Shown here: positions 2,586-32,073 of the stretch, in pieces
How positions within the stretch are numbered: the stretch's first letter is position 1
Layout: each line of letters starts with the position of its first letter
The notes under the pieces: model-generated
Told to the model about the DNA's origin: nothing
The model's input: the letters and a program-made list of their open reading frames with translations, nothing else
Database searches by the model: none
Made by a program: the position numbers and the translations under genes
Origin: a virus
Lineage: Duplodnaviria; Heunggongvirae; Uroviricota; Caudoviricetes
IMG/VR virus record: IMGVR_UViG_2740892426_000006
Length of the DNA: 34,415 nt
Reading direction: 5' to 3' (one strand)

Positions 2586-2712
2586 TTTGTTCTCCACGTA
2601 TATGCACTGCACCGCGCTGAATTCTGGTAAAAGGAAGCCCTCACCATCCGGTGATTATTGAGTTAATTACGTTTCCATAAATGCCCCCGCAGGGGCATTT
2701 GCAGTAATGAAA

Positions 2713-3537
2713 TCAGGCGGTGAAAGTACCAATAAAGGTTTCTACTTTGCTGTCTTTGAATTTCTCAACAAGCAGATCACGAAATTCGTTAGCCATTTCT
2801 TCCTGCACCGCTTCCAGCTGAATAATGCGCAGAACCAGTACAGGACGATCGCCAGTGATAATGCTGAGGCGTAATTTAAACGGACGTTCTTTCAGACCTT
2901 CAAACGGAACGCATTTAAATTCAAATGCCACTGGCATAATGTCTTTGGTCTTCGCTTCGACAGACTCCATCAGGGAGCGTTTGCCGCTGAAGTCATTATC
3001 TTCAAAATCAGCGGTCTGGTTTGCTTCAATCGTGATTTTACGGACTGCCGCAGCCGCTTTTGTTGCTTGAATGGCGTCACCATTAGCATCAAAGCCCACA
3101 AGGTAGTCGGCCCAGTCTTCGATCCATTCTGCCAGTGACTTCTGGGAGTTACGCTCGCCGTTAACAGACAACAGAGCAGAGAACGGTGCTGTCTTTTTCA
3201 GTTTGAGAGTGGCAGTGTTATCTGCGTGACCTGGCTCATCAATAGTACCCAGGTTAAGCACACTGACGGCACGCATATTATCGGCATCGATAAAGCAGCG
3301 GGTGCCTTCATCTGCAAGATCTTTAGAATAACGGGTAAAATCATCGATGCTGGCAGTGGAAAGTGCACCACGGAAACGGAAGCGATTTAAATTAAATTTT
3401 TCCAGATCATGAATGCGGAAATTCTCAGGCAATGCCACAGCATCGGCACCAATCTTACTGATAATTTCATTAACACTCTGAGCAGAAATAAGGGCATGGA
3501 TTTGATTAATTGCGGTTGCGTCTAAGTTCTGAGACAT
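2713..3537 (-). CDS. conserved phage protein, 274 aa (YfdQ-like)
   Basis: Long clean ORF with a GAGGA-like Shine-Dalgarno; length and neighbourhood match my recollection of E. coli CPS-53 YfdQ. Confidence 0.55.
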
Positions 3538-3602
3538 AATAAGTCCTCACTATATAAAGATATTCAGTGATGAGATAAATAATCAGTTTATTACGAACGA
3601 TA

Positions 3603-3965
3603 TTAACGACCTGCTGCGCGGAGTTTTCCGTCAGGTTCACCGGCAAGAGTCAGTAATTGTCCCTGGTCTTCCTGCAGAATAGTCAGGCGACCACCGCGAT
3701 TGACATACATCGGCGTTTCGGTGGTGTCTTCTTCGGAAATTTTCCCGCGGTTAGTTGGGCGAACATATGAGAGTTTGTGTTTGATTTTCACACGGTTCTC
3801 ATCAAACGGTTCGATTTCCAGATTGAGTGAGACCTTCCCTTTGGTTTTCGTGTTCATCACACCGGAAGCGACCTCACTGAGAACTGCGCCGATTTTGGTT
3901 TCAAATACGCCGCCGTCCAGCTCCCCGATAAATGCCTGCACATCAGTACTGCGTTCGCTAGCCAT
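3603..3965 (-). CDS. hypothetical early-left protein, 120 aa (YfdP-sized)
   Basis: Start set at the ATG (3963-3965) preceded by GAGGAG. The track ORF extends upstream into low-complexity sequence that I treat as non-coding. Confidence 0.5.
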   Translation of the reverse strand: MASERSTDVQAFIGELDGGVFETKIGAVLSEVASGVMNTKTKGKVSLNLEIEPFDENRVKIKHKLSYVRPTNRGKISEEDTTETPMYVNRGGRLTILQEDQGQLLTLAGEPDGKLRAAGR

Positions 3966-4435
3966 TTTGCTGCTCCTCATCATATCGACCCTGCAAGGTC
4001 GGTTGGTTTCTCCACAAAACAGAGAAGAACACCTGCGGTGGCAGCCGCCCGGATGGATTGGGTTATGAGCCCGTCGTCCGGTGATGCTCTTCTCTGTTTT
4101 GCAAAAAAGGACGGTACCAGCCGGAAGCAAGGGTACAAACTGGTACCGCCAGGACTACACACAGCATAAAGTTGTGGTGCCGGGTGCCTCCCGGTGCCTG
4201 GCGAAGGTTGCACACCAGGCGGGTGGGTATCCACAGAAGGTCGACTGTCAGCCTCAACCTTAACCCGCGTGCGCTGAGCCGCATTCACCACAACGCTAAG
4301 GATTCTCTCTGGTTGAAAATACTTAGCTGTTATGTGCCTGCTTTTAGCCACATCAGGCGAGGTGGACCTGGTTATTCCCCAACAACAAGGATTCGGTTAA
4401 TCTGGATATCCCCAACAACAATAAGAGTATTCAAT

Positions 4436-5178: not shown

Positions 5179-5805
5179 TTAGAGTTCGTATTGAACTCCT
5201 TTGACTACACCAATGATAAGGCAATTACCATTGATAGGGATGTTGGGATACCGAGGATTTAATGGCACTAAAAACTTTTGAGGGCCATCGATGACTAATT
5301 TTTTTACTGTAGCTTCGTTTGTTCCATCAAGTCGAGCGATGACTATTTTTCCATGACGAGGTTCTGCATCTGGATCTACAATCACTGTTGCGCCTTCTGG
5401 TATTGTTGGGAGGCCATTAGGGTTAGTCATGGAGTCACCTTTAACCTCTAATGCAAATGAGTTATCACCAATCTTTAATGATGTATCTACCCACTTGTCC
5501 ACTTCACTAAACACTTCTGCTGCCCTGCACTCAGTAAACTGCCCAGCCTGAACCCACGATATTACAGGAACTCTGCGCATGTTTGTGACGAGTTTGCCTT
5601 CAAACTCAGCACCATAAAGAATGTAATCTATTGACGTATTGAAGAACTTCGCTAATTTCGAAAGTGCCTCCCCACCAGGGGTATTGATGTCTTTCTCCCA
5701 GTACCCCACAGCAACGTCGCTTACTCCACAAAATTTACCCAATTCTTTCTGGGACGTTCCGGTAACTCTTCTCAGAGCTTTTATACGCTGACCAACCGTT
5801 TCCAT
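5179..5805 (-). CDS. cI: CI-type prophage repressor (HTH plus LexA-like S24 autopeptidase domain)
   Basis: 208 aa; N-terminal HTH (SQKELGKFCGVSDVAVGYWE); C-terminal S24-like region with GDSM motif and a downstream K; divergent from cro. Confidence 0.85.
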   Translation of the reverse strand: METVGQRIKALRRVTGTSQKELGKFCGVSDVAVGYWEKDINTPGGEALSKLAKFFNTSIDYILYGAEFEGKLVTNMRRVPVISWVQAGQFTECRAAEVFSEVDKWVDTSLKIGDNSFALEVKGDSMTNPNGLPTIPEGATVIVDPDAEPRHGKIVIARLDGTNEATVKKLVIDGPQKFLVPLNPRYPNIPINGNCLIIGVVKGVQYEL

Positions 5806-5825: not shown

Positions 5826-5890
5826 TGCTAAGTAATCTTAGTTTTTATTGACCAAAGATAGATTTGTAATTAGCATCTAATAAAAATTAG
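5826..5890. promoter_or_regulatory. operator/promoter region between cI and cro (oR, pRM, pR)
   Basis: Three palindromes built from TTAG/CTAA half-sites: CTAAGtaatCTTAG (5828-5841), ATTAGcatCTAAT (5869-5881), CTAATaaaaATTAG (5877-5890). Confidence 0.45.
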
Positions 5891-5902: not shown

Positions 5903-6103
5903 ATGACAACTGACGATATCGAAAGCTACTTCGGCAGTATTGAGAAAGTTGCTGCTTTTTTCGGCATAACAACTGAAGCCGTTTATCAGTGGCGAAACCG
6001 TCCGGGCCAGTTAATTCCAAAAGGACGTGCAGCAGAAGCTGCATATAGAACTTGCGGACGGTTGCCATTTAAACCTGAGCTTTATGAAAAATCTAATGGA
6101 TAA
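5903..6103 (+). CDS. cro: Cro-like small HTH regulator
   Basis: 66 aa, GGAGGG Shine-Dalgarno, divergent from cI; the segment FGITTEAVYQWRN resembles a Cro-type HTH. Confidence 0.65.
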   Translation: MTTDDIESYFGSIEKVAAFFGITTEAVYQWRNRPGQLIPKGRAAEAAYRTCGRLPFKPELYEKSNG

Positions 6104-6692
6104 ATCGATTAACAGAAACCACAGAACGATGAGGCTAACCGTGGGTAAGCATCACTGGAAAGTAGAAAAACAGCCTGAGTGGTACGTGAAAGCTGTCAGA
6201 AAAACTATCGCAGCGTTGCCGGGTGGTTACGCTGAAGCAGCTGACTGGCTGGATGTAACAGAAAACGCATTATTTAACCGCCTTCGTGCCGATGGCGATC
6301 AGATTTTCCCGCTGGGATGGGCAATGATTTTGCAACGTGCTGGTGGAACTCACTTCATTGCTGACGCTGTGGCGCAGTCTGCAAATGGCGTCTTTGTGTC
6401 TCTTCCTGACGTCGAGGATGTGGACAACGCCGATATTAACCAGCGCCTGCTGGAAGTCATTGAACAGATTGGCAGTTATTCCAGACAGATTCGTTCGGCA
6501 ATCGAAGACGGTGTGGTGGAACCGCATGAGAAGACAGCAATTAACGACGAGCTGTATCTCTCAATTTCGAAGCTGCAGGAGCATGCAGCACTGGTCTACA
6601 AAATCTTTTGCATTTCAGAAAGTAATGACGCCCGCGAGTGTGCAGCTCCGGGCGCCGTGGCGTGTCGTGACTGTGGAGAAACTAACGCATGA
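6084..6692 (+). CDS. CII-like phage regulatory protein (start uncertain)
   Basis: ORF immediately after and overlapping the cro 3' end. Candidate starts at 6084, 6096, 6129 or GTG 6141. The position is that of lambdoid cII; family assignment is from memory only. Confidence 0.45.
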
Positions 6693-7036: not shown

Positions 7037-7978
7037 ATGAGCACTAAATTAACCGGCTATGTATGGGATGGTTGCGCAGCGTCAGGCATGAAATTATCCA
7101 GCGTGGCAATTATGGCACGCCTGGCTGATTTCAGTAATGACGAAGGTGTGTGCTGGCCATCAATTGAAACCATTGCCCGCCAGATTGGCGCGGGGATGAG
7201 TACCGTCAGAACGGCTATCGCACGGCTGGAAGCAGAAGGCTGGTTAACGCGTAAGGCGCGTCGCCAGGGTAACCGCAATGCGTCGAATGTTTATCAGCTT
7301 AACGTTGCGAAGCTTCAGGCTGCGGCTTTTTCTCAACTGTCAGATTCTGACCCGTCAAAATCTGACGCATCAAAATCTGACCCGTCAAAATTTGATGCGT
7401 CGAAATCTGGCAAAAAAGCGGGTTTTCACCCGTCAGAATCTGGCGGGGATCCGTCAGTAAAATCAAAACATGATCCGTCAGATAAAAAAACTTCTCGTCC
7501 GGACGCTTCGCAACCGGACACGCAGAAGGCTGAACAGGATTTTTTAACTCGCCATCCTGATGCGGTTGTATTCAGCCCTAAAAAGCGCCAGTGGGGGACG
7601 CAGGATGATTTGACCTGCGCACAGTGGCTCTGGAAAAAAATCATCGCCCTGTACGAGCATGCCGCCGAATGTGACGGCGAGGTGGTTCGTCCCAAAGAAC
7701 CGAACTGGACAGCCTGGGCAAACGAAATTCGCCTGATGTGTGTGCAGGATGGTCGTACTCATAAACAAATCTGCGAGATGTACAGCCGCGTCAGTCGCGA
7801 TCCGTTCTGGTGCCGTAACGTGCTCAGCCCGTCGAAGCTGCGGGAAAAATGGGATGAGCTTTCCCTGCGCTTATCGCCGTCCGTCAGCACGTACACCGAA
7901 AAACGCGAGGACCCGTACTTCAAAGCCAGTTACGACAACGTGGACTACAGCCAGATCCCGGCAGGATTCAGGGGGTGA
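7037..7978 (+). CDS. replication initiation protein (O-like), N-terminal HTH, internal repeat linker
   Basis: GAGGT Shine-Dalgarno; N-terminal segment CWPSIETIARQIGAGMSTVRTAIARLEAEGWL is HTH-like; a 5-aa repeat linker (SDPSK/SDASK) is encoded by the DNA iterons. Confidence 0.7.
   Translation: MSTKLTGYVWDGCAASGMKLSSVAIMARLADFSNDEGVCWPSIETIARQIGAGMSTVRTAIARLEAEGWLTRKARRQGNRNASNVYQLNVAKLQAAAFSQLSDSDPSKSDASKSDPSKFDASKSGKKAGFHPSESGGDPSVKSKHDPSDKKTSRPDASQPDTQKAEQDFLTRHPDAVVFSPKKRQWGTQDDLTCAQWLWKKIIALYEHAAECDGEVVRPKEPNWTAWANEIRLMCVQDGRTHKQICEMYSRVSRDPFWCRNVLSPSKLREKWDELSLRLSPSVSTYTEKREDPYFKASYDNVDYSQIPAGFRG
7346..7420. repeat. iteron array (five tandem 15-bp units) inside the O-like gene; candidate origin of replication
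   Basis: tctgacccgtcaaaa / tctgacgcatcaaaa / tctgacccgtcaaaa / tttgatgcgtcgaaa / tctggcaaaaaagcg; further ccgtcaga copies and an A-rich tract (gataaaaaaa) extend to about 7490. Confidence 0.5.
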
Positions 7979-7980
7979 GC

Positions 7981-8469
7981 ATGAGTCTTTTGAATGACGT
8001 TCAGAAATTCATTGAAGCCCATCCGGGCTGTACTTCCGGAGACATTGCGGATGCTTTTGCAGGTTACTCACGGCAGCGCGTTCTGCAGTCAGCAAGCAAG
8101 TTACGTCAGAGTGGGCGTGTGGCTCACCGTTGTGAAGGGGATACACGCAGACATTTCCCGCGCCTGACTGAGAGAGCGCAGGAGGCGGAACCGCAACCAG
8201 TTCGTGAAACCAGACCTGTGCGCAATTTCTATGTCGGCACTAACGACCCGCGGGAGATTTTGTGCCTGACCCGCCAGGCTGAAGAACTGGAGTCCAGGGG
8301 CTTATACCGTCGTGCTGCAACGGTGTGGATGGCGGCATTCCGTGAAAGCCACTCCCAGCCAGAACGAAACAATTTTCTGGCGCGTCGTGAGCAGTGTTTA
8401 CGGAAAAGCAGCAAGCGCGCTGTATCGGGTGATGAGTGGTATCTGTCAGGGAATTACGTGGGGGCGTAA
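7981..8469 (+). CDS. winged-helix protein with PerC/ANR-like C-terminal motif
   Basis: ATG at 7981 after AGGGGG. The C-terminal segment LESRGLYRRAATVWMAAF resembles my recollection of the PerC-family signature; not aligned. Confidence 0.4.
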   Translation: MSLLNDVQKFIEAHPGCTSGDIADAFAGYSRQRVLQSASKLRQSGRVAHRCEGDTRRHFPRLTERAQEAEPQPVRETRPVRNFYVGTNDPREILCLTRQAEELESRGLYRRAATVWMAAFRESHSQPERNNFLARREQCLRKSSKRAVSGDEWYLSGNYVGA

Positions 8470-8795
8470 TGACGACGTTAACTCAATGCCAGCAGCAGGT
8501 GCTGGATATGCTGATTTCTTATCAGAAAGAGCGTGGCTTTCCGCCAACCAATCAGGAGGTGGCAACCATGCTGGGATACCGTTCAGTGAATGCAGCGGTG
8601 GAGCATCTTCGCGCACTGGAGAAAAAAGGCGTCATCACGATAAAGCGTGGCGTGGCCCGGGGGATAACGCTTCATACCGCGGTGAAGGACGACGACAGCG
8701 AGGCGGTCGGGATTATCCGCGCACTGCTTGCCGGTGAGGAAAACGCAAGGCTGCGTGCAACCCACTGGTTACATGAGAGGGGCCTGAAAGTATGA
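8469..8795 (+). CDS. LexA N-terminal DNA-binding-domain-like protein without a peptidase domain
   Basis: MTTLTQCQQQVLDMLISYQKERGFPPTNQEVATMLGYRSVNAAVEHLRALEKKGVI parallels the E. coli LexA N-terminus; only 108 aa, so no S24 domain. TAATG coupling with the upstream gene. Confidence 0.6.
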   Translation: MTTLTQCQQQVLDMLISYQKERGFPPTNQEVATMLGYRSVNAAVEHLRALEKKGVITIKRGVARGITLHTAVKDDDSEAVGIIRALLAGEENARLRATHWLHERGLKV

Positions 8796-9181
8796 AGCTG
8801 ATCCTGCCTTTTCCGCCCAGCGTGAACACGTACTGGCGACACCCCAACAAAGGGGCGTTTGCAGGTAAGAGCCTGATAAGCGCGGCGGGGCGCAAATTCC
8901 AGAGCGCGGCGTGTGCAGCAATAGTTGAGCAGTTACGTCGTCTGCCAAAACCAACGTCGGCACCTGCTTCAGTGGAGATCGTGTTGTTTCCTCCGGATAA
9001 CCGGATCCGCGATCTGGACAACTATAACAAGGCGCTGTTTGACGCCCTGACCCACGCGGGTGTGTGGGAAGACGACAGCCAGGTGAAAAGAATGCTGGTG
9101 GAGTGGGGACCGGTTATCCCGGAAGGGAAGGTCGAGATCACTATCAGTAAGTACGAGAAAACGGCGGGTGCAGCCGCCTGA
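8792..9181 (+). CDS. rusA: RusA-type Holliday junction resolvase
   Basis: 129 aa; N-terminus MKLILPFPPSVNTYWR and the DLDNYNKALFDAL segment match RusA from memory; ATGA coupling. Confidence 0.85.
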   Translation: MKLILPFPPSVNTYWRHPNKGAFAGKSLISAAGRKFQSAACAAIVEQLRRLPKPTSAPASVEIVLFPPDNRIRDLDNYNKALFDALTHAGVWEDDSQVKRMLVEWGPVIPEGKVEITISKYEKTAGAAA

Positions 9182-9200
9182 TCAAGAGGAGAAACGAAGT

Positions 9201-10010
9201 ATGAATAATCTGATGGTCATTGATGGTATTGAAGTTCGTCGTGATGCTTATGGGCGTTACAGCCTGAACGATCTGCATCGCGCAGCAGTAGCATCTGGTG
9301 CAAATGCCAGAACCAAGGAGCCGGGAAAGTTTCTTTCCAGCCAACAAACTGTTGAGCTTGTTCATGAATTGACCAACACCCAGAATTTGGGTGTTGACCC
9401 GGTGAGTGTGATTCATGGGGGAAATGAACGGGGAACTTATGTCTGCAAGGAACTGGTGTATGCCTATGCAATGTGGATCAGCCCGTCATTCCATCTGAAG
9501 GTGATCCGCACTTTCGACATGGTAACCAGCGCACCGGAAAAATTATCCGGGCAGGCTGCTGACAAGATGCAGGCTGGCGTGATTCTGCTGGACTTTATGC
9601 GCCGGGAGTTAAATCTGTCTAACTCATCAGTGCTTGGTGCCTGTCAGAAACTTCAGGAGGCTGTTGGCTTACCGAATCTGGCACCGCGCTATGCCATTGA
9701 TGCTCCTGCTGATGCACACGATGGCTCAAGTCGCCCGACACTGTCACTGAGTGCACTGCTGAAACAGTATGGTATACGCCTGACGGCTAATCAGGCATAT
9801 CACCAGATGGTGAAACTGGGGATCGTCGAGCAGCGCGAACGATACAGCCGTACCGCGATTAACAACATCAAAAAATTCTGGTCGCTGACAGCGAAAGGTT
9901 GCATGTTCGGCAAGAACATCACCAGTCCCGCAAATCCGCGCGAGACGCAGCCGCATTTCTTCGAATCCCGATTCCCTGAGCTGTTAAAGCTGCTCGATAC
10001 CGTTCATTGA
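9201..10010 (+). CDS. KilA-N domain protein (antirepressor-like)
   Basis: ATG at 9201 after AAGAGGAG; the N-terminal 100 aa look KilA-N-like. Confidence 0.6.
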   Translation: MNNLMVIDGIEVRRDAYGRYSLNDLHRAAVASGANARTKEPGKFLSSQQTVELVHELTNTQNLGVDPVSVIHGGNERGTYVCKELVYAYAMWISPSFHLKVIRTFDMVTSAPEKLSGQAADKMQAGVILLDFMRRELNLSNSSVLGACQKLQEAVGLPNLAPRYAIDAPADAHDGSSRPTLSLSALLKQYGIRLTANQAYHQMVKLGIVEQRERYSRTAINNIKKFWSLTAKGCMFGKNITSPANPRETQPHFFESRFPELLKLLDTVH

Positions 10011-10011
10011 G

Positions 10012-11007
10012 GTGACCGTGAGAGCACTACTGACCCCTGAAATTGCCCCGCGTATGGGGATCGTATTGTTCAGGCCAGGTTCAGAGCTGATGCCCCTGTT
10101 TATGCAGGGGCGTGTCCTGCTGGAGCCTGAGCCGGAGCGTTATTCATCTTTCGCCAGTGGTGCCGTTCCGGCGGCATCACAACCGCTGGCGGATGATCCT
10201 GCCGTTCGGGCCGTGTTCCGCAATGAGGCAGTGATCCGTCGTGCTGGTGGCGTGGAATGTCTTGAAAGCTGGTTACTTCGTGAAAAAGGCTGCCAGTGGC
10301 CTCATTCCGACTGGCACAGCGAGAACATGACCACAATGCGACACGCTCCGGGTGCAATCCGTCTGTGCTGGCACTGCGATAACCAGCTGCGCGATCAGTT
10401 CACGGAACGGCTGGAATCAATGGCAACGGATAACTGTGCCCGCTGGGTGTTGTCTGTTGTGCGTCGGGATCTCGGTTTTGATGACAGTCACGTTGTGACA
10501 ATGCCGGAACTGTGCTGGTGGCTGATTCGTAATGATCTGGCGGATGCCTTACCGGAAAGTGCAGCCCGTAAGGCACTGAGATTACCGAAGCCTGTTGTGC
10601 CGTCTGTTACCCGGGAAAGTGACCTTGTGCCTTCGGTTCCTGCCACCAGCATCATCCAGGATAAGGCGAAAAAGGTGCTGGCGCTGAAAGTGGATCCGGA
10701 GTCGCCGGAGTCTTTTATGTTACGCCCAAAACGTCGCCGCTGGGTTAATGAAAAGTACACGCGCTGGGTTAAGACACAGCCGTGTGCATGTTGTGGAAAG
10801 CCTGCTGATGATCCCCACCACCTGATAGGCCATGGTCAGGGTGGAATGGGTACAAAAGCGCATGACCTCTTTGTGTTGCCTTTGTGCAGAAAGCATCACG
10901 ACGAGCTGCATGCGGATACCGTGGCATTTGAAGAGATGTATGGCTCCCAGCTGGAGCTGATATTTCGTTTTATCGATCATGCGCTGGCAATAGGCGTACT
11001 GGCGTAA
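10012..11007 (+). CDS. nin-region protein with C-terminal HNH-like Cys/His motif (DUF968/YdfU-like)
   Basis: 331 aa; C-terminal CACCGKPADDPHHLIGHGQ...CRKHHDELH; sits immediately upstream of Q, as ydfU does in the Qin prophage. Confidence 0.55.
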   Translation: MTVRALLTPEIAPRMGIVLFRPGSELMPLFMQGRVLLEPEPERYSSFASGAVPAASQPLADDPAVRAVFRNEAVIRRAGGVECLESWLLREKGCQWPHSDWHSENMTTMRHAPGAIRLCWHCDNQLRDQFTERLESMATDNCARWVLSVVRRDLGFDDSHVVTMPELCWWLIRNDLADALPESAARKALRLPKPVVPSVTRESDLVPSVPATSIIQDKAKKVLALKVDPESPESFMLRPKRRRWVNEKYTRWVKTQPCACCGKPADDPHHLIGHGQGGMGTKAHDLFVLPLCRKHHDELHADTVAFEEMYGSQLELIFRFIDHALAIGVLA

Positions 11008-11020
11008 GTGGAGAACGAGC

Positions 11021-11773
11021 ATGAACCTTGAAGCCTTACCAAAATATTACTCCCCAAAATCTCCAAAATTGAGCGATGACGCACCGGCGACAGGCTCAGG
11101 TGGTTTAACGATTACGGATGTGATGGCTGCGCAGGGGATGGTGCAGTCGAAAGCACCGCTTGGGTTTGCCTTATTCCTGGCAAAAGTTGGTGTTCAGGAT
11201 CCTCAGTTTGCGATTGAAGGTCTGCTCAATTACGCGATGGCAATGGATAACCCGACATTGAACAAATTGAGTGAAGAAACCCGGTTACAGATCATCCCTT
11301 ACCTTGTGAGTTTTGCCTTTGCTGATTATTCCAGGTCTGCGGCAAGTAAGGCTCGCTGTGAGCATTGTGCTGGTACTGGATTTCATAGTGTATTGCGCGA
11401 AGTGGTGAAACACTCCAGAAGCGGGGAATCTGTTATCAAGGAAGAGTGGGTGAAGGAATTATGTCAGCATTGCCATGGTAAGGGAGAAGTCAGCACGGCT
11501 TGCAGAGGGTGTAAGGGTAAAGGCATTGTCCTGGATGAAAAAAGAACCCGGCTTCATGGCGCGCCTGTTTATAAGATTTGTGGGCGTTGCAATGGAAACC
11601 GGTTTAGTCGTTTACCGACCACACTGGCACGACGTCATGTCCAGAAGCTGGTACCAGACCTGACTGATTATCAGTGGTACAAAGGATATGCAGACGTCAT
11701 TGATAAACTGGTAACAAAGTGCTGGCAGGAAGAAGCATTCGCTGAAGCACAATTGAGAAAGGTGACGAGATAA
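11021..11773 (+). CDS. Q: late-gene antiterminator Q (QuuQ-type, 250 aa)
   Basis: 250 aa with Cys/His clusters (CEHCAGTG, CQHCHGKG, CRGCKGKG, CGRCNG); followed by a promoter/terminator module. Confidence 0.7.
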   Translation: MNLEALPKYYSPKSPKLSDDAPATGSGGLTITDVMAAQGMVQSKAPLGFALFLAKVGVQDPQFAIEGLLNYAMAMDNPTLNKLSEETRLQIIPYLVSFAFADYSRSAASKARCEHCAGTGFHSVLREVVKHSRSGESVIKEEWVKELCQHCHGKGEVSTACRGCKGKGIVLDEKRTRLHGAPVYKICGRCNGNRFSRLPTTLARRHVQKLVPDLTDYQWYKGYADVIDKLVTKCWQEEAFAEAQLRKVTR

Positions 11774-12835: not shown

Positions 12836-12984
12836 AGGGCTTTTAATTTGTGAAAATGGGCGGCTGGTGGGTGTTGGTAGCACCTGCCAGCCATTCGCTC
12901 ATGCTTACTGGTCACAAGCGAACCATGGCCCACTGCTTTAGCGCAAAAGCAGAGTGAGCCTACCAGAGTTACGCTTACTGATCC

Positions 12985-14046
12985 ATGAAAAACACTGTAA
13001 AAATAAACAGTATTGATTTAATCAACGCTGATTGCCTGCATTTTATTCAGTCCCTGCCTGATGATTCCATTGACCTGATTGTTACCGATCCGCCTTACTT
13101 CAAGGTGAAACCCAACGGTTGGGACAATCAGTGGAAAGGGGACGAAGATTACCTTAAGTGGCTGGACCACTGTCTGGCCCAGTTCTGGCGGGTGTTGAAA
13201 CCTGCCGGAAGCCTTTACCTGTTCTGTGGGCATCGCCTGGCATCTGATATTGAGATCATGATGCGTGAACGTTTCAACGTGCTTAACCATATCATCTGGG
13301 CGAAGCCGTCCGGACGTTGGAATGGGTGTAATAAAGAAAGTCTGCGCGCATATTTTCCTGCCACAGAGCGCGTTCTGTTTGCTGAACATTACCGGGGGCC
13401 ATATCGCGGCAAAAGTGACGGCTATGTGGCAAAAGAAAGGGAACTCAAACAGCACATAATGGCACCGCTGATATCGTATTTCAGGGATGCTCGTGCCGAA
13501 CTGGGTATAACGGCAAAACAAATTGCCGAAGCCACAGGTAAGAAAAATATGGTTTCCCACTGGTTTGGTGCCAGTCAGTGGCAGTTGCCGAATGAGGCTG
13601 ACTACCGGAAGTTACAGGCACTGTTTTCCCGTATAGCGGCAGAGAAGTTTCAGGAACAACAACTGGAACAACCACACCACCAGTTGGTGGCATCTTATGA
13701 TTCACTGAATCGCAAATATTCTGAATTGCTGGATGAGTTTAAATCTCTCCGGCGCTATTTCTCCGTATCAGTCTCCGTGCCTTATACCGATGTCTGGATG
13801 CATAAACCCGTTCAGTTCTACCCGGGTAAACATCCGTGTGAGAAACCGGCGGATATGCTCAGGCAAATAATCAATGCCAGTAGTCGACCCGGCGATCTGG
13901 TTGCTGATTTCTTTATGGGATCCGGTTCCACAATAAAAGCAGCAATGGCGCTGGGGCGTCGGGCGTTAGGTGTTGAGCTTGAGACAGAGCGGTTTAATCA
14001 GACCATCCAGGAAATCAGTATGTTATCAGCAAATACAATTTTGTGA
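12985..14046 (+). CDS. orphan DNA methyltransferase (N6-adenine/N4-cytosine class; motif IV precedes motif I)
   Basis: DLIVTDPPY (motif IV) near the N-terminus and FFMGSGST (AdoMet-binding motif I) near the C-terminus; no restriction endonuclease gene adjacent. Confidence 0.8.
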   Translation: MKNTVKINSIDLINADCLHFIQSLPDDSIDLIVTDPPYFKVKPNGWDNQWKGDEDYLKWLDHCLAQFWRVLKPAGSLYLFCGHRLASDIEIMMRERFNVLNHIIWAKPSGRWNGCNKESLRAYFPATERVLFAEHYRGPYRGKSDGYVAKERELKQHIMAPLISYFRDARAELGITAKQIAEATGKKNMVSHWFGASQWQLPNEADYRKLQALFSRIAAEKFQEQQLEQPHHQLVASYDSLNRKYSELLDEFKSLRRYFSVSVSVPYTDVWMHKPVQFYPGKHPCEKPADMLRQIINASSRPGDLVADFFMGSGSTIKAAMALGRRALGVELETERFNQTIQEISMLSANTIL

Positions 14047-29519: not shown

Positions 29520-32073
29520 ACCGGTAGGCGATCTGGTCGTTGATTTGAGTCTGGATGCGGCCAGATTTGACGAGCAGATGGCCAGAGTCAGGCGTCATTT
29601 TTCCGGTACGGAAAGTGATGCGAAAAAAACAGCGGCAGTCGTTGAACAGTCGCTGAGCCGACAGGCGCTGGCTGCACAGAAAGCGGGGATTTCCGTCGGG
29701 CAGTATAAAGCCGCCATGCGTATGCTGCCTGCACAGTTCACCGACGTGGCCACGCAGCTTGCAGGCGGGCAAAGTCCGTGGCTGATCCTGCTGCAACAGG
29801 GGGGGCAGGTGAAGGACTCCTTCGGCGGGATGATCCCCATGTTCAGGGGGCTTGCCGGTGCGATCACCCTGCCGATGGTGGGGGCCACCTCGCTGGCGGT
29901 GGCGACCGGTGCGCTGGCGTATGCCTGGTATCAGGGCAACTCAACCCTGTCCGATTTCAACAAAACGCTGGTCCTTTCCGGCAATCAGGCGGGACTGACG
30001 GCAGATCGTATGCTGGTCCTGTCCAGAGCCGGGCAGGCGGCAGGGCTGACGTTTAACCAGACCAGCGAGTCACTCAGCGCACTGGTTAAGGCGGGGGTAA
30101 GCGGTGAGGCTCAGATTGCGTCCATCAGCCAGAGTGTGGCGCGTTTCTCCTCTGCATCCGGCGTGGAGGTGGACAAGGTCGCTGAAGCCTTCGGGAAGCT
30201 GACCACAGACCCGACGTCGGGGCTGACGGCGATGGCACGCCAGTTCCATAACGTGACGGCGGAGCAGATTGCGTATGTTGCTCAGTTGCAGCGTTCCGGC
30301 GATGAAGCCGGGGCATTGCAGGCGGCGAACGAGGCCGCAACGAAAGGGTTTGATGACCAGACCCGCCGCCTGAAAGAGAACATGGGCACGCTGGAGACCT
30401 GGGCAGACAGGACTGCGCGGGCCTTCAAATCCATGTGGGATGCGGTGCTGGATATTGGTCGTCCTGATACCGCGCAGGAGATGCTGATTAAGGCAGAGGC
30501 TGCGTTTAAGAAAGCAGACGACATCTGGAATCTGCGCAAGGATGATTATTTTGTTAACGATGAAGCGCGGGCGCGTTACTGGGATGATCGTGAAAAGGCC
30601 CGTCTTGCGCTTGAAGCCGCCCGAAAGAAGGCTGAGCAGCAGACTCAACAGGACAAAAATGCGCAGCAGCAGAGCGATACCGAAGCGTCACGGCTGAAAT
30701 ATACCGAAGAGGCGCAGAAGGCTTACGAACGGCTGCAGACGCCGCTGGAGAAATATACCGCCCGTCAGGAAGAACTGAACAAGGCACTGAAAGACGGGAA
30801 AATCCTGCAGGCGGATTACAACACGCTGATGGCGGCGGCGAAAAAGGATTATGAAGCGACGCTGAAAAAGCCGAAACAGTCCGGCGTGAAGGTGTCTGCG
30901 GGCGATCGTCAGGAAGACAGTGCTCATGCTGCCCTGCTGACGCTTCAGGCAGAACTCCGGACGCTGGAGAAGCATGCCGGAGCGAATGAGAAAATCAGCC
31001 AGCAGCGCCGGGATTTGTGGAAGGCAGAAAGTCAGTTCGCGGTACTGGAGGAGGCGGCACAACGTCGCCAGCTGTCCGCACAGGAGAAATCCCTGCTGGC
31101 GCATAAAGATGAGACGCTGGAATACAAACGCCAGCTGGCTGCACTTGGCGACAAGGTTACGTATCAGGAGCGCCTGAACGCGCTGGCGCAGCAGGCGGAT
31201 AAATTCGCACAGCAGCAACGGGCAAAACGGGCCGCCATTGATGCGAAAAGCCGGGGGCTGACTGACCGGCAGGCAGAACGGGAAGCCACGGAACAGCGCC
31301 TGAAGGAACAGTATGGCGATAATCCGCTGGCGCTGAATAACGTCATGTCAGAGCAGAAAAAGACCTGGGCGGCTGAAGACCAGCTTCGCGGGAGCTGGAT
31401 GGCAGGCCTGAAGTCCGGCTGGAGTGAGTGGGAAGAGAGCGCCACGGACAGTATGTCGCAGGTAAAAAGTGCAGCCACGCAGACCTTTGATGGTATTGCA
31501 CAGAATATGGCAGCGATGCTGACCGGCAGTGAGCAGAACTGGCGCAGCTTCACCCGTTCCGTGCTGTCCATGATGACAGAAATTCTGCTTAAGCAGGCAA
31601 TGGTGGGGATTGTCGGGAGTATCGGCAGCGCCATTGGCGGGGCTGTTGGTGGCGGCGCATCCGCGTCAGGCGGTACAGCCATTCAGGCCGCTGCGGCGAA
31701 ATTCCATTTTGCAACCGGAGGATTCACAGGAACCGGCGGCAAATATGAGCCAGCGGGGATTGTTCACCGTGGTGAATTTGTCTTCACGAAGGAGGCAACC
31801 AGCCGGATTGGCGTGGGGAATCTCTACCGGCTGATGCGCGGCTATGCCACCGGTGGTTATGTCGGTACACCGGGCAGTCTGGCTGACAGCCGGTCGCAGG
31901 CGTCCGGGACGTTTGAGCAGAATAACCATGTGGTGATTAACAACGACGGCACGAACGGGCAGATAGGTCCGGCTGCTCTGAAGGCGGTGTATGACATGGC
32001 CCGCAAGGGTGCCCGTGATGAAATTCAGACACAGATGCGTGATGGTGGCCTGTTCTCCGGAGGTGGACGATGA
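29512..32073 (+). CDS. H: tail tape measure protein
   Basis: 853 aa; lambda gpH-like. Confidence 0.95.
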   Translation: MAEPVGDLVVDLSLDAARFDEQMARVRRHFSGTESDAKKTAAVVEQSLSRQALAAQKAGISVGQYKAAMRMLPAQFTDVATQLAGGQSPWLILLQQGGQVKDSFGGMIPMFRGLAGAITLPMVGATSLAVATGALAYAWYQGNSTLSDFNKTLVLSGNQAGLTADRMLVLSRAGQAAGLTFNQTSESLSALVKAGVSGEAQIASISQSVARFSSASGVEVDKVAEAFGKLTTDPTSGLTAMARQFHNVTAEQIAYVAQLQRSGDEAGALQAANEAATKGFDDQTRRLKENMGTLETWADRTARAFKSMWDAVLDIGRPDTAQEMLIKAEAAFKKADDIWNLRKDDYFVNDEARARYWDDREKARLALEAARKKAEQQTQQDKNAQQQSDTEASRLKYTEEAQKAYERLQTPLEKYTARQEELNKALKDGKILQADYNTLMAAAKKDYEATLKKPKQSGVKVSAGDRQEDSAHAALLTLQAELRTLEKHAGANEKISQQRRDLWKAESQFAVLEEAAQRRQLSAQEKSLLAHKDETLEYKRQLAALGDKVTYQERLNALAQQADKFAQQQRAKRAAIDAKSRGLTDRQAEREATEQRLKEQYGDNPLALNNVMSEQKKTWAAEDQLRGSWMAGLKSGWSEWEESATDSMSQVKSAATQTFDGIAQNMAAMLTGSEQNWRSFTRSVLSMMTEILLKQAMVGIVGSIGSAIGGAVGGGASASGGTAIQAAAAKFHFATGGFTGTGGKYEPAGIVHRGEFVFTKEATSRIGVGNLYRLMRGYATGGYVGTPGSLADSRSQASGTFEQNNHVVINNDGTNGQIGPAALKAVYDMARKGARDEIQTQMRDGGLFSGGGR

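Follow-up and report, generated by a model that had tools for sequence, protein, structure and literature searches.

What is a LexA DNA-binding domain without its protease doing in a lambdoid prophage? The question is raised by a gene at positions 8469-8795 (+ strand) of the virus record IMGVR_UViG_2740892426_000006, a stretch of 34,415 nucleotides (hereafter the window) that represents an SfV/CPS-53-type lambdoid prophage. We call the gene product mini-LexA. An earlier note, made from the sequence alone, had proposed that such a protein could occupy SOS boxes and resist removal by RecA-stimulated autocleavage. Our analysis indicates that mini-LexA is very probably a RecA-insensitive DNA-binding protein of the LexA-domain type that is expressed early in lytic development, and that it is most likely a damage-insensitive regulator acting in phage lytic growth.

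A LexA-type DNA-binding domain without the autoprotease

The open reading frame (ORF) runs from an ATG at 8469 to a stop codon at 8793-8795 and encodes 108 amino acids (aa). The 108-aa ORF pointed out in the earlier note is real, and the Prokaryotic Genome Annotation Pipeline (PGAP) calls the same ORF, with an identical start, in a 98.8%-identical Escherichia coli prophage. Its parts, including those taken from an AlphaFold2 (AF2) model with its per-residue confidence (predicted local distance difference test, pLDDT), are as follows.

8469..8795, + strand: mini-LexA gene, 108 aa plus stop; PHROG 362; PGAP name 'LexA family transcriptional regulator'; the same gene as SfV orf42
8469..8675, + strand: LexA-type winged helix-turn-helix DNA-binding domain, residues 1-69 (Pfam, phmmer, AF2, Foldseek)
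8583..8609, + strand: recognition helix S39-V-N-A-A-V-E-H-L47 (LexA counterpart SPNAAEEHL)
8676..8687, + strand: start of the linker, residues 70-73, running on into acidic D74-D76 (AF2)
8688..8792, + strand: family-specific helical hairpin tail, residues 74-108 (helices 74-87 and 93-103; AF2 pLDDT 83-84; present in relatives at 39-67% identity)
8730..8735, + strand: A88-G89 dipeptide, aligned to the LexA cleavage bond A84-G85; unconserved

Mini-LexA thus begins with a winged helix-turn-helix of LexA type (1-69), continues with an acidic linker and ends in a conserved helical hairpin of 35 residues in place of the S24 domain of LexA. Residues 1-65 span the Pfam family LexA_DNA_bind (PF01726) from end to end (all 65 profile positions, E=2.9e-19; score 69 bits, cut-off 23.7), and a phmmer comparison with PDB entry 1lea gives E=6e-16. 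An alignment to E. coli LexA, which the earlier note had named as a check, gives 43% identity over 90 aa (BLASTP, E=1e-21). The AF2 model has a mean pLDDT of 79, with about 80-87 in the DNA-binding domain and a low-confidence stretch at residues 71-75 (below 50). It places helices at 6-22, 28-35 and 40-52, strands at 56-58 and 66-68, and helices at 74-87 and 93-103: three helices and a two-strand wing, then two more helices. Foldseek superposes the N-terminal domain of this model on the LexA-DNA crystal structure 3jso with a root-mean-square deviation of 1.0 Å over 67 columns and 51% identity. The likeness of the first 70 aa to LexA, on which the earlier note had built its reading of 8469-8795, is therefore correct, and far beyond chance.

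The rest of LexA is absent. No Pfam match to Peptidase_S24 (PF00717) was found in mini-LexA, which stops 39 residues past the DNA-binding domain, and neither a C-terminal Peptidase_S24 domain nor its Ser119/Lys156 dyad is present. Against the lexA equivalog TIGR00498, the protein scores 70.5 bits, with a cut-off of 110.95, and covers profile positions 1-91 of 203. The missing S24 protease domain reported in the earlier note is borne out by both results. Since the S24 autoprotease is absent, mini-LexA should resist RecA-stimulated self-cleavage, and the architecture supports the RecA insensitivity that had been deduced from it.

The same note had stated that the Ala-Gly cleavage site is lacking. 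Taken literally this is wrong, as A88-G89 is present and both HMMER and BLASTP pair A88-G89-E90 (8730-8738) with LexA A84-G85-E86; taken functionally it holds, as the dipeptide is unconserved and predicted to be helical. In orthologues at 84-91% identity the position reads AK, AN or VG, and in ten remoter tail-bearing relatives (39-67% identity) ER, TR, AG, SG, DD, AC, AE or AD. The AF2 model places A88-G89 at a helix end. A vestigial working cleavage site was rejected on the variable dipeptide of the orthologues together with the predicted helix, which differs from the strand-loop of LexA.

In LexA, the residues reported to contact DNA are S39, N41, A42, E44 and E45 (PMC3091678). Mini-LexA keeps four of these five (S39, N41, A42 and E45) and carries V in place of E44; in its homologue from E. 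coli phage mEp390, helix 3 differs from that of LexA at E44A and L47V alone. Because four of the five base-contact residues are retained, binding of mini-LexA to SOS-box-like DNA is plausible, and its half-site is probably CTGT-like, judging from these residues. The same specificity as LexA cannot be assumed, because E44 is lost across the family.

The comparison with LexA can be drawn further. With the E. coli LexA N-terminal domain (1lea, 3jso), mini-LexA shares the winged helix-turn-helix, four of the five base contacts and an acidic linker after the domain. It differs from LexA in lacking the S24 domain, the catalytic Ser/Lys and a conserved scissile bond, in having V for E44, and in that any dimerisation must use an unrelated 35-aa helical hairpin. 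Its gene is phage-borne and lies in the lytic early operon, whereas the LexA gene is autoregulated by its own SOS boxes. Among LexA forms, the closest in functional terms are the fragment 1-84 left after cleavage and the non-cleavable LexA(Ind-) proteins; such mutants, for example G85D or S119A, are unresponsive to activated RecA (RecA*), as is expected of mini-LexA.

A conserved helical tail takes the place of the protease domain

Relatives of mini-LexA that bear the tail, down to 39% identity, were recovered by HMMER in an exhaustive search of 1.84 billion representatives. Each is laid out in the same order: a LexA DNA-binding domain, then a short, mostly acidic linker and a tail of ~35 residues, and the tail follows an amphipathic pattern (..φφRALL....AR..A..WL...G). 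In the mEp390-type sister clade, represented by 80 IMG/VR loci, the gene is intact in every one (80/80), and the pooled pairwise ratio of nonsynonymous to synonymous substitution rates (dN/dS) is 0.204 for the tail and 0.225 for the DNA-binding domain. Purifying selection thus acts on the domain and the tail alike.

A profile of the tail gave no significant match in the PDB. The likeness of the tail to solved structures was limited to sub-threshold, repeat-summed matches to designed PPR/solenoid hairpins, a resemblance to a single PPR/TPR-like hairpin, and was rejected. Because an isolated two-helix hairpin is unlikely to be stable by itself, we infer from the model that the tail is a dimerisation module (forming a four-helix bundle) or a partner-binding module. 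Separately, six entries of the representative library (P0132, P0133, P0148, P0151, P0153 and P0156) carry two LexA DNA-binding-domain stretches within one polypeptide, and may represent pseudo-dimers in which two LexA domains are covalently joined.

Mini-LexA lies in the early lytic operon

We next consider when the gene would be expressed. The genes and sites that frame it in the window are listed here.

1-1164, - strand: integrase
5179-5805, - strand: CI-type repressor with HTH_3 and Peptidase_S24 domains, transcribed divergently to the early operon
5848-5876, + strand: promoter-like site TTGACC-17-TAGCAT, heading the rightward early operon
6027-6692, + strand: CII-like gene
7037-7978, + strand: O-like replication protein
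7975-8469, + strand: yfdN-type gene, PerC family; its stop overlaps the mini-LexA start (TAATG)
8792-9181, + strand: rusA, encoding a Holliday-junction resolvase; its first codon and the mini-LexA stop overlap in ATGA
9201-10010, + strand: KilA-N protein gene
10012-11007, + strand: DUF968 gene
11021-11773, + strand: Q antiterminator

A consensus promoter scan of the + strand found no further promoter-like site between 5876 and 9514, and a terminator scan of the same strand found none before 10436. The gene lies in the early operon behind the site at 5848-5876, overlaps both of its neighbours and has no promoter-like site of its own; consequently, it should be silent in the lysogen and co-transcribed with the replication genes after loss of the repressor or on infection. 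The earlier suggestion that the protein tunes induction from the lysogen does not agree with this position. As the prophage repressor is an S24 protein, induction is expected to be RecA-dependent and to coincide with the destruction of host LexA.

Two smaller features of this region deserve mention. The repressor gene and the cro-like gene are 98 bp apart, and in this spacer the palindromes CTAAGTAATCTTAG (5828-5841) and CTAATAAAAATTAG (5877-5890) flank the promoter-like site and are probably the immunity operators. The 7975-8469 gene occupies the usual position of the helicase loader (lambda P), and its 164-aa product has a PerC/ANR-like C-terminal half and a weakly MarR-like N-terminal half; a loader resembling DnaC or P is not apparent anywhere from the O-like gene to Q.

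The surroundings of the gene were compared in 160 loci, comprising 80 with a 99-100%-identical gene and 80 of the mEp390 clade (L010-L169). In both clades, and in 160/160 loci, rusA lies directly 3' of the mini-LexA gene, and the DUF968 gene comes next, with a KilA-N gene in between in some loci. Identity between the clades is 47% for mini-LexA and 73% for RusA. Mini-LexA therefore evolves faster than its neighbour, yet under purifying selection. On the 5' side, a 654-bp dam gene (N6-adenine methylase) sits between yfdN and the mini-LexA gene in 54/80 close IMG/VR loci (for example L046:7351-8004) and in most E. coli matches; in the window dam is absent and yfdN abuts the mini-LexA gene.

SOS boxes in the window and in related loci

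If mini-LexA binds SOS-box-like DNA, are there such sites within its reach in the phage genome? An approximate matrix, derived from 26 E. coli LexA boxes, was run over the window and 178 related loci. The earlier note had reported no canonical CTGT-N8-ACAG box in the window. This is incorrect: exact matches stand at 12995-13010 and 31564-31579, and the first of them belongs to a near-consensus box scoring 22.1 bits.

12993..13012, no strand assigned: SOS box CACTGTAAAAATAAACAGTA, the sole strong SOS box of the window, in codons 3-9 of a DNA methylase gene

The score of CACTGTAAAAATAAACAGTA compares with a median of 20.0 bits for the training boxes and with 18.3 bits for the best of 100 shuffles; all other sites in the window score 9.5 bits or less. 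The box lies in the ORF at 12985-14046, an N6/N4 DNA methylase between Q and the lysis genes, and its CTG...CAG core is kept in SfV, cdtI, phiP27 and 1720a-02 (the phiP27 and 1720a-02 versions being 80% identical). This position suggests that the methylase is SOS-controlled; a consensus scan found no promoter. For mini-LexA itself, the site at 12993-13012 is a candidate target in cis, and the presumption of a chromosomal target, made in the earlier note for want of a box in the window, loses its ground. A 20-bp perfect palindrome, CTGCTTTAGCGCAAAAGCAG, was also observed at 12933-12952, ~40 bp upstream of the box.

In the closest clade, boxes scoring 18 bits or more are present no further than 8 kb from the gene in 46/80 loci. 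They fall in different places: 25 loci have one in the methylase gene, 25 in the cI-type repressor gene and 10 in a spacer of 160 bp that separates rusA from the KilA-N gene. The spacer box TACTGTATTTATGAACAGTG is strong (10/80 close relatives; L014:8765-8784, L046:8765-8784) and would put the KilA-N gene, possibly an antirepressor, under LexA, with DUF968 and Q next in order; the corresponding spacer of the window (9182-9200) is 19 nt long and boxless. The box in the repressor gene, TACTGTTTTTA[C/T]ATACAGTA, reaches 25-27 bits (25/80 related loci; L046:3546-3565, L021:5094-5113) and falls at the interdomain linker of a 230-aa CI-type repressor, and the repressor gene of the window is without it. 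In a few mEp390-clade loci, similar boxes occur 3.5-4.5 kb upstream of the mini-LexA gene. A single, consistent SOS-box operator in cis is ruled out by these differing places and by the rarity of boxes in the mEp390 clade.

We also considered palindromes of other kinds. Within 6-8 kb of the gene, the two clades have two palindromes in common, both of them in stretches of DNA that are identical between the clades. The initial 15 kb of the window, from the integrase to the methylase region, also contain perfect palindromes, and these were rejected as operators, being mostly terminator hairpins or intragenic.

A proposed RecA-resistant stand-in for LexA, or a possible regulator with its own operator

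How would such a protein act? We tentatively favour, at somewhat less than an even chance, the reading that mini-LexA, being resistant to RecA, stands in for LexA at SOS-box-like operators. According to this model, the hairpin tail would make the protein dimeric, and the dimer would bind palindromic operators with CTGT-type half-sites resembling the SOS box. As RecA* cannot inactivate mini-LexA, LexA-type repression could be restored in lytic growth, once host LexA and the S24 repressor of the prophage have been destroyed. The likely targets would be the SOS promoters of the host and SOS boxes carried by phages, for instance that at 12993-13012. This reading is favoured because the recognition helix is nearly identical to that of LexA in the E. 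coli-phage clades, because of the timing of expression and because of the pairing with rusA. We counted in its support the spacer box of the 10/80 close relatives described above and a box-headed operon in the Edwardsiella phage EPP-1 and its relatives (7/9 loci), to which we return below.

The pairing with rusA allows a speculation about one target. RuvA prevents resolution by RusA (PMC2265524), and ruvB is among the core SOS genes (PMC3091678). Since RuvA blocks RusA and ruvB is SOS-controlled, renewed repression of ruvAB would favour the phage resolvase by leaving Holliday junctions free for RusA, and the invariant pairing with rusA might, speculatively, be explained in this way. The broader proposal that mini-LexA, in Stx2 phages among others, re-silences the host SOS response early in lytic growth, including ruvAB and the SOS genes of rival prophages (antirepressors, defence genes and toxins), appears to us rather unlikely.

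Several observations weigh against a role at SOS boxes. The matrix used to score them is approximate. Any SOS box within 6 kb is found in just 8/80 mEp390-clade loci, and the surroundings of the gene in E. coli DP051 have none over 21 kb. Position 44 is V, A, F, T, L or Y, and hence non-acidic, in 11/11 aligned tail-bearing members, while the four true LexA fragments of the same alignment have EE at positions 44-45; a tally at position 44 based on length is uninformative, as many short representative hits are fragments of true LexA. Positions 42, 43 and 45 vary as well in more distant tail-bearing members. Such variation in the recognition helix is unexpected for a family aimed at one invariant host operator.

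The same observations argue for a phage regulator with an operator of its own, in which the LexA fold recognises a non-SOS sequence and represses or activates a phage or host promoter, with the tail perhaps contacting RNA polymerase or a partner. E44 is lost family-wide, helix-3 residues vary between clades, most relatives have no SOS box nearby, and mini-LexA evolves faster than RusA (47% against 73% identity between clades). A precedent exists in gp6 of the tectivirus GIL01, which recognises a distinct palindrome and activates a late promoter (PMC6182141). However, the palindromes searched in both clades and in the early region of the window yielded no candidate operator, four of the five LexA contacts are exactly kept in the E. 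coli-phage clades, and mini-LexA has no sequence similarity to gp6. On balance we regard an own operator as the main rival reading, only a little less probable than the first. An accessory of the recombination module, in which the winged helix and the tail tether or modulate RusA or the HNH-like DUF968 protein on DNA, would account for the adjoining rusA with its overlapping codons in 160/160 loci, and for the presence of DUF968 one or two genes further on in phages of E. coli, Klebsiella and Edwardsiella. Yet the mini-LexA gene of a Klebsiella phage has no adjoining rusA, the rusA of EPP-1 is upstream and separate, and phage 82 and DLP12 carry rusA and are not known to have a mini-LexA. The kept residues of the LexA recognition helix moreover imply sequence-specific operator binding, and we consider this role unlikely.

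A different possibility is that mini-LexA poisons LexA, either through mixed dimers with the host protein, as the earlier note had suggested, or by offering its Ala-Gly region as a pseudo-substrate for cleavage by LexA/RecA*. The alignments made by HMMER and BLASTP do run through LexA residues 70-86, AGE included. LexA, however, dimerises via its C-terminal domain (PMC3091678), and this part is absent from mini-LexA, where an unrelated hairpin replaces it, making mixed dimers unlikely; the AG dipeptide and the residues around it are unconserved, and the region is predicted to be helical. Poisoning of LexA is thus highly improbable. Least credible of all is a decaying, functionless remnant of a captured lexA gene. 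Frameshifts or truncations affect some copies in the databases (P0023, P0033 and P0111, for instance), and the gene is missing from the decayed CPS-53 of K-12. The selection data already contradict this reading, with a dN/dS of 0.22 and 80/80 intact genes in the sister clade, length and tail kept down to 39% identity, and nearly always full-length copies in 2233 complete E. coli genomes. Taken together, a small phage DNA-binding regulator is the best explanation of the gene.

Comparison with other phage-encoded LexA domains

Mini-LexA belongs among the phage-encoded truncated LexA homologues. Foldseek against BFVD returned many stand-alone LexA DNA-binding-domain proteins of 65-150 aa from diverse phages, including tectiviruses and the mycobacteriophage Wildcat. 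The only characterised phage-encoded truncated LexA homologue is GIL01 gp6, a 66-aa protein of a Bacillus thuringiensis tectivirus that recognises GaCACAnnTGTGaC instead of the LexA box of its host and acts as an activator of the late promoter (PMC6182141). Like mini-LexA, gp6 is phage-encoded, consists essentially of the DNA-binding domain, derives from the LexA of its host clade and is expressed from an early operon after loss of LexA. In contrast, gp6 is without the helical tail that mini-LexA carries. The two also sit in different late-gene circuits: the window has a Q antiterminator (11021-11773) where GIL01 has a late promoter activated by gp6, and no candidate for a gp6-type palindrome over a late-promoter -35 element was found in the window. 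BLASTP of mini-LexA against gp6 gave no alignment at E<=100, and homology between the two was rejected on this result. As far as their sequences tell, they are probably independent captures of a LexA domain from the respective host clade.

The Edwardsiella phage EPP-1 provides a second comparison. It encodes a tail-less stand-alone LexA domain of 71 aa, located between the replication genes and Q and beside DUF968. This protein keeps E44 (NAAED) and has no tail, whereas the family in the window shows the reverse. EPP-1 and its relatives have the order SOS box, rha, 71-aa protein gene, DUF968; the 71-aa protein gene is co-transcribed with rha, and the box, a strong one, stands 62 nt upstream of rha in 7/9 loci (L008:5231-5250, L008:5312-6210, L170-L176). 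This arrangement, from which the family in the window differs, suggests an SOS-induced operon with SOS-box autoregulation by a self-encoded, uncleavable LexA-like protein.

A widespread prophage gene and its possible significance

The mini-LexA gene is already annotated, and it is a very common accessory gene of E. coli prophages. Residues 1-108 match positions 1-106 of 106 of the PHROG 362 profile (E=1.2e-59); the name of this family, 'transcriptional repressor', is an annotation. The product is 96-99% identical to the copies of SfV, SfII, cdtI, mEp460 and Stx2 phages. At an identity of at least 95%, the gene occurs in 2233 of the 5426 complete genomes of E. coli, and a genome may hold as many as four copies. 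It is also present in 61 phage records, which include SfV (orf42), SfII, SfIV, cdtI, mEp460 and many Stx2a, Stx2c and Stx2k phages. The PHROG 362 copies of the WP_000210156 type (SfV orf42, SfII, SfIV, cdtI, mEp460, Stx2a/Stx2c) belong to the same family as the gene in the window, and the difference is confined to the local context, namely dam. In the decayed CPS-53 prophage of K-12, where the gene is lost, yfdN is followed by a dam fragment. Targeted searches of the open-access literature, the nin region included, gave no functional study of this enterobacterial family.

If mini-LexA does re-impose LexA-type repression at a time when host LexA is destroyed, the SOS response would be subject to a widespread modulator encoded by phages, and ~41% of E. 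coli genomes would hold an unrecognised phage-borne anti-SOS factor. This would bear on the induction kinetics and toxin yield of the Stx2 phages that carry the gene, on the cross-talk between co-resident prophages with LexA-controlled antirepressors or accessory genes, and on SOS-dependent mutagenesis and antibiotic tolerance of infected cells. The gene is easily tested and is found in well-studied phages (SfV, mEp460, cdtI and Stx2 phages). We consider the hypothesis to be of moderate interest: it is cheap to test and touches both Stx phages and SOS biology, and would not surprise a specialist.

A further arrangement was observed in the Klebsiella phage ST846-OXA48phi9.1 (L007:1-234, 694-969, 2586-4013), where dinI lies two genes upstream of the mini-LexA gene. 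In this phage, a 22-bit SOS box stands directly upstream of a divergent two-gene unit, and the second protein of that unit has a weak KwaB-like match (Kiwa defence; E=1.5e-5), just under the Pfam cut-off.

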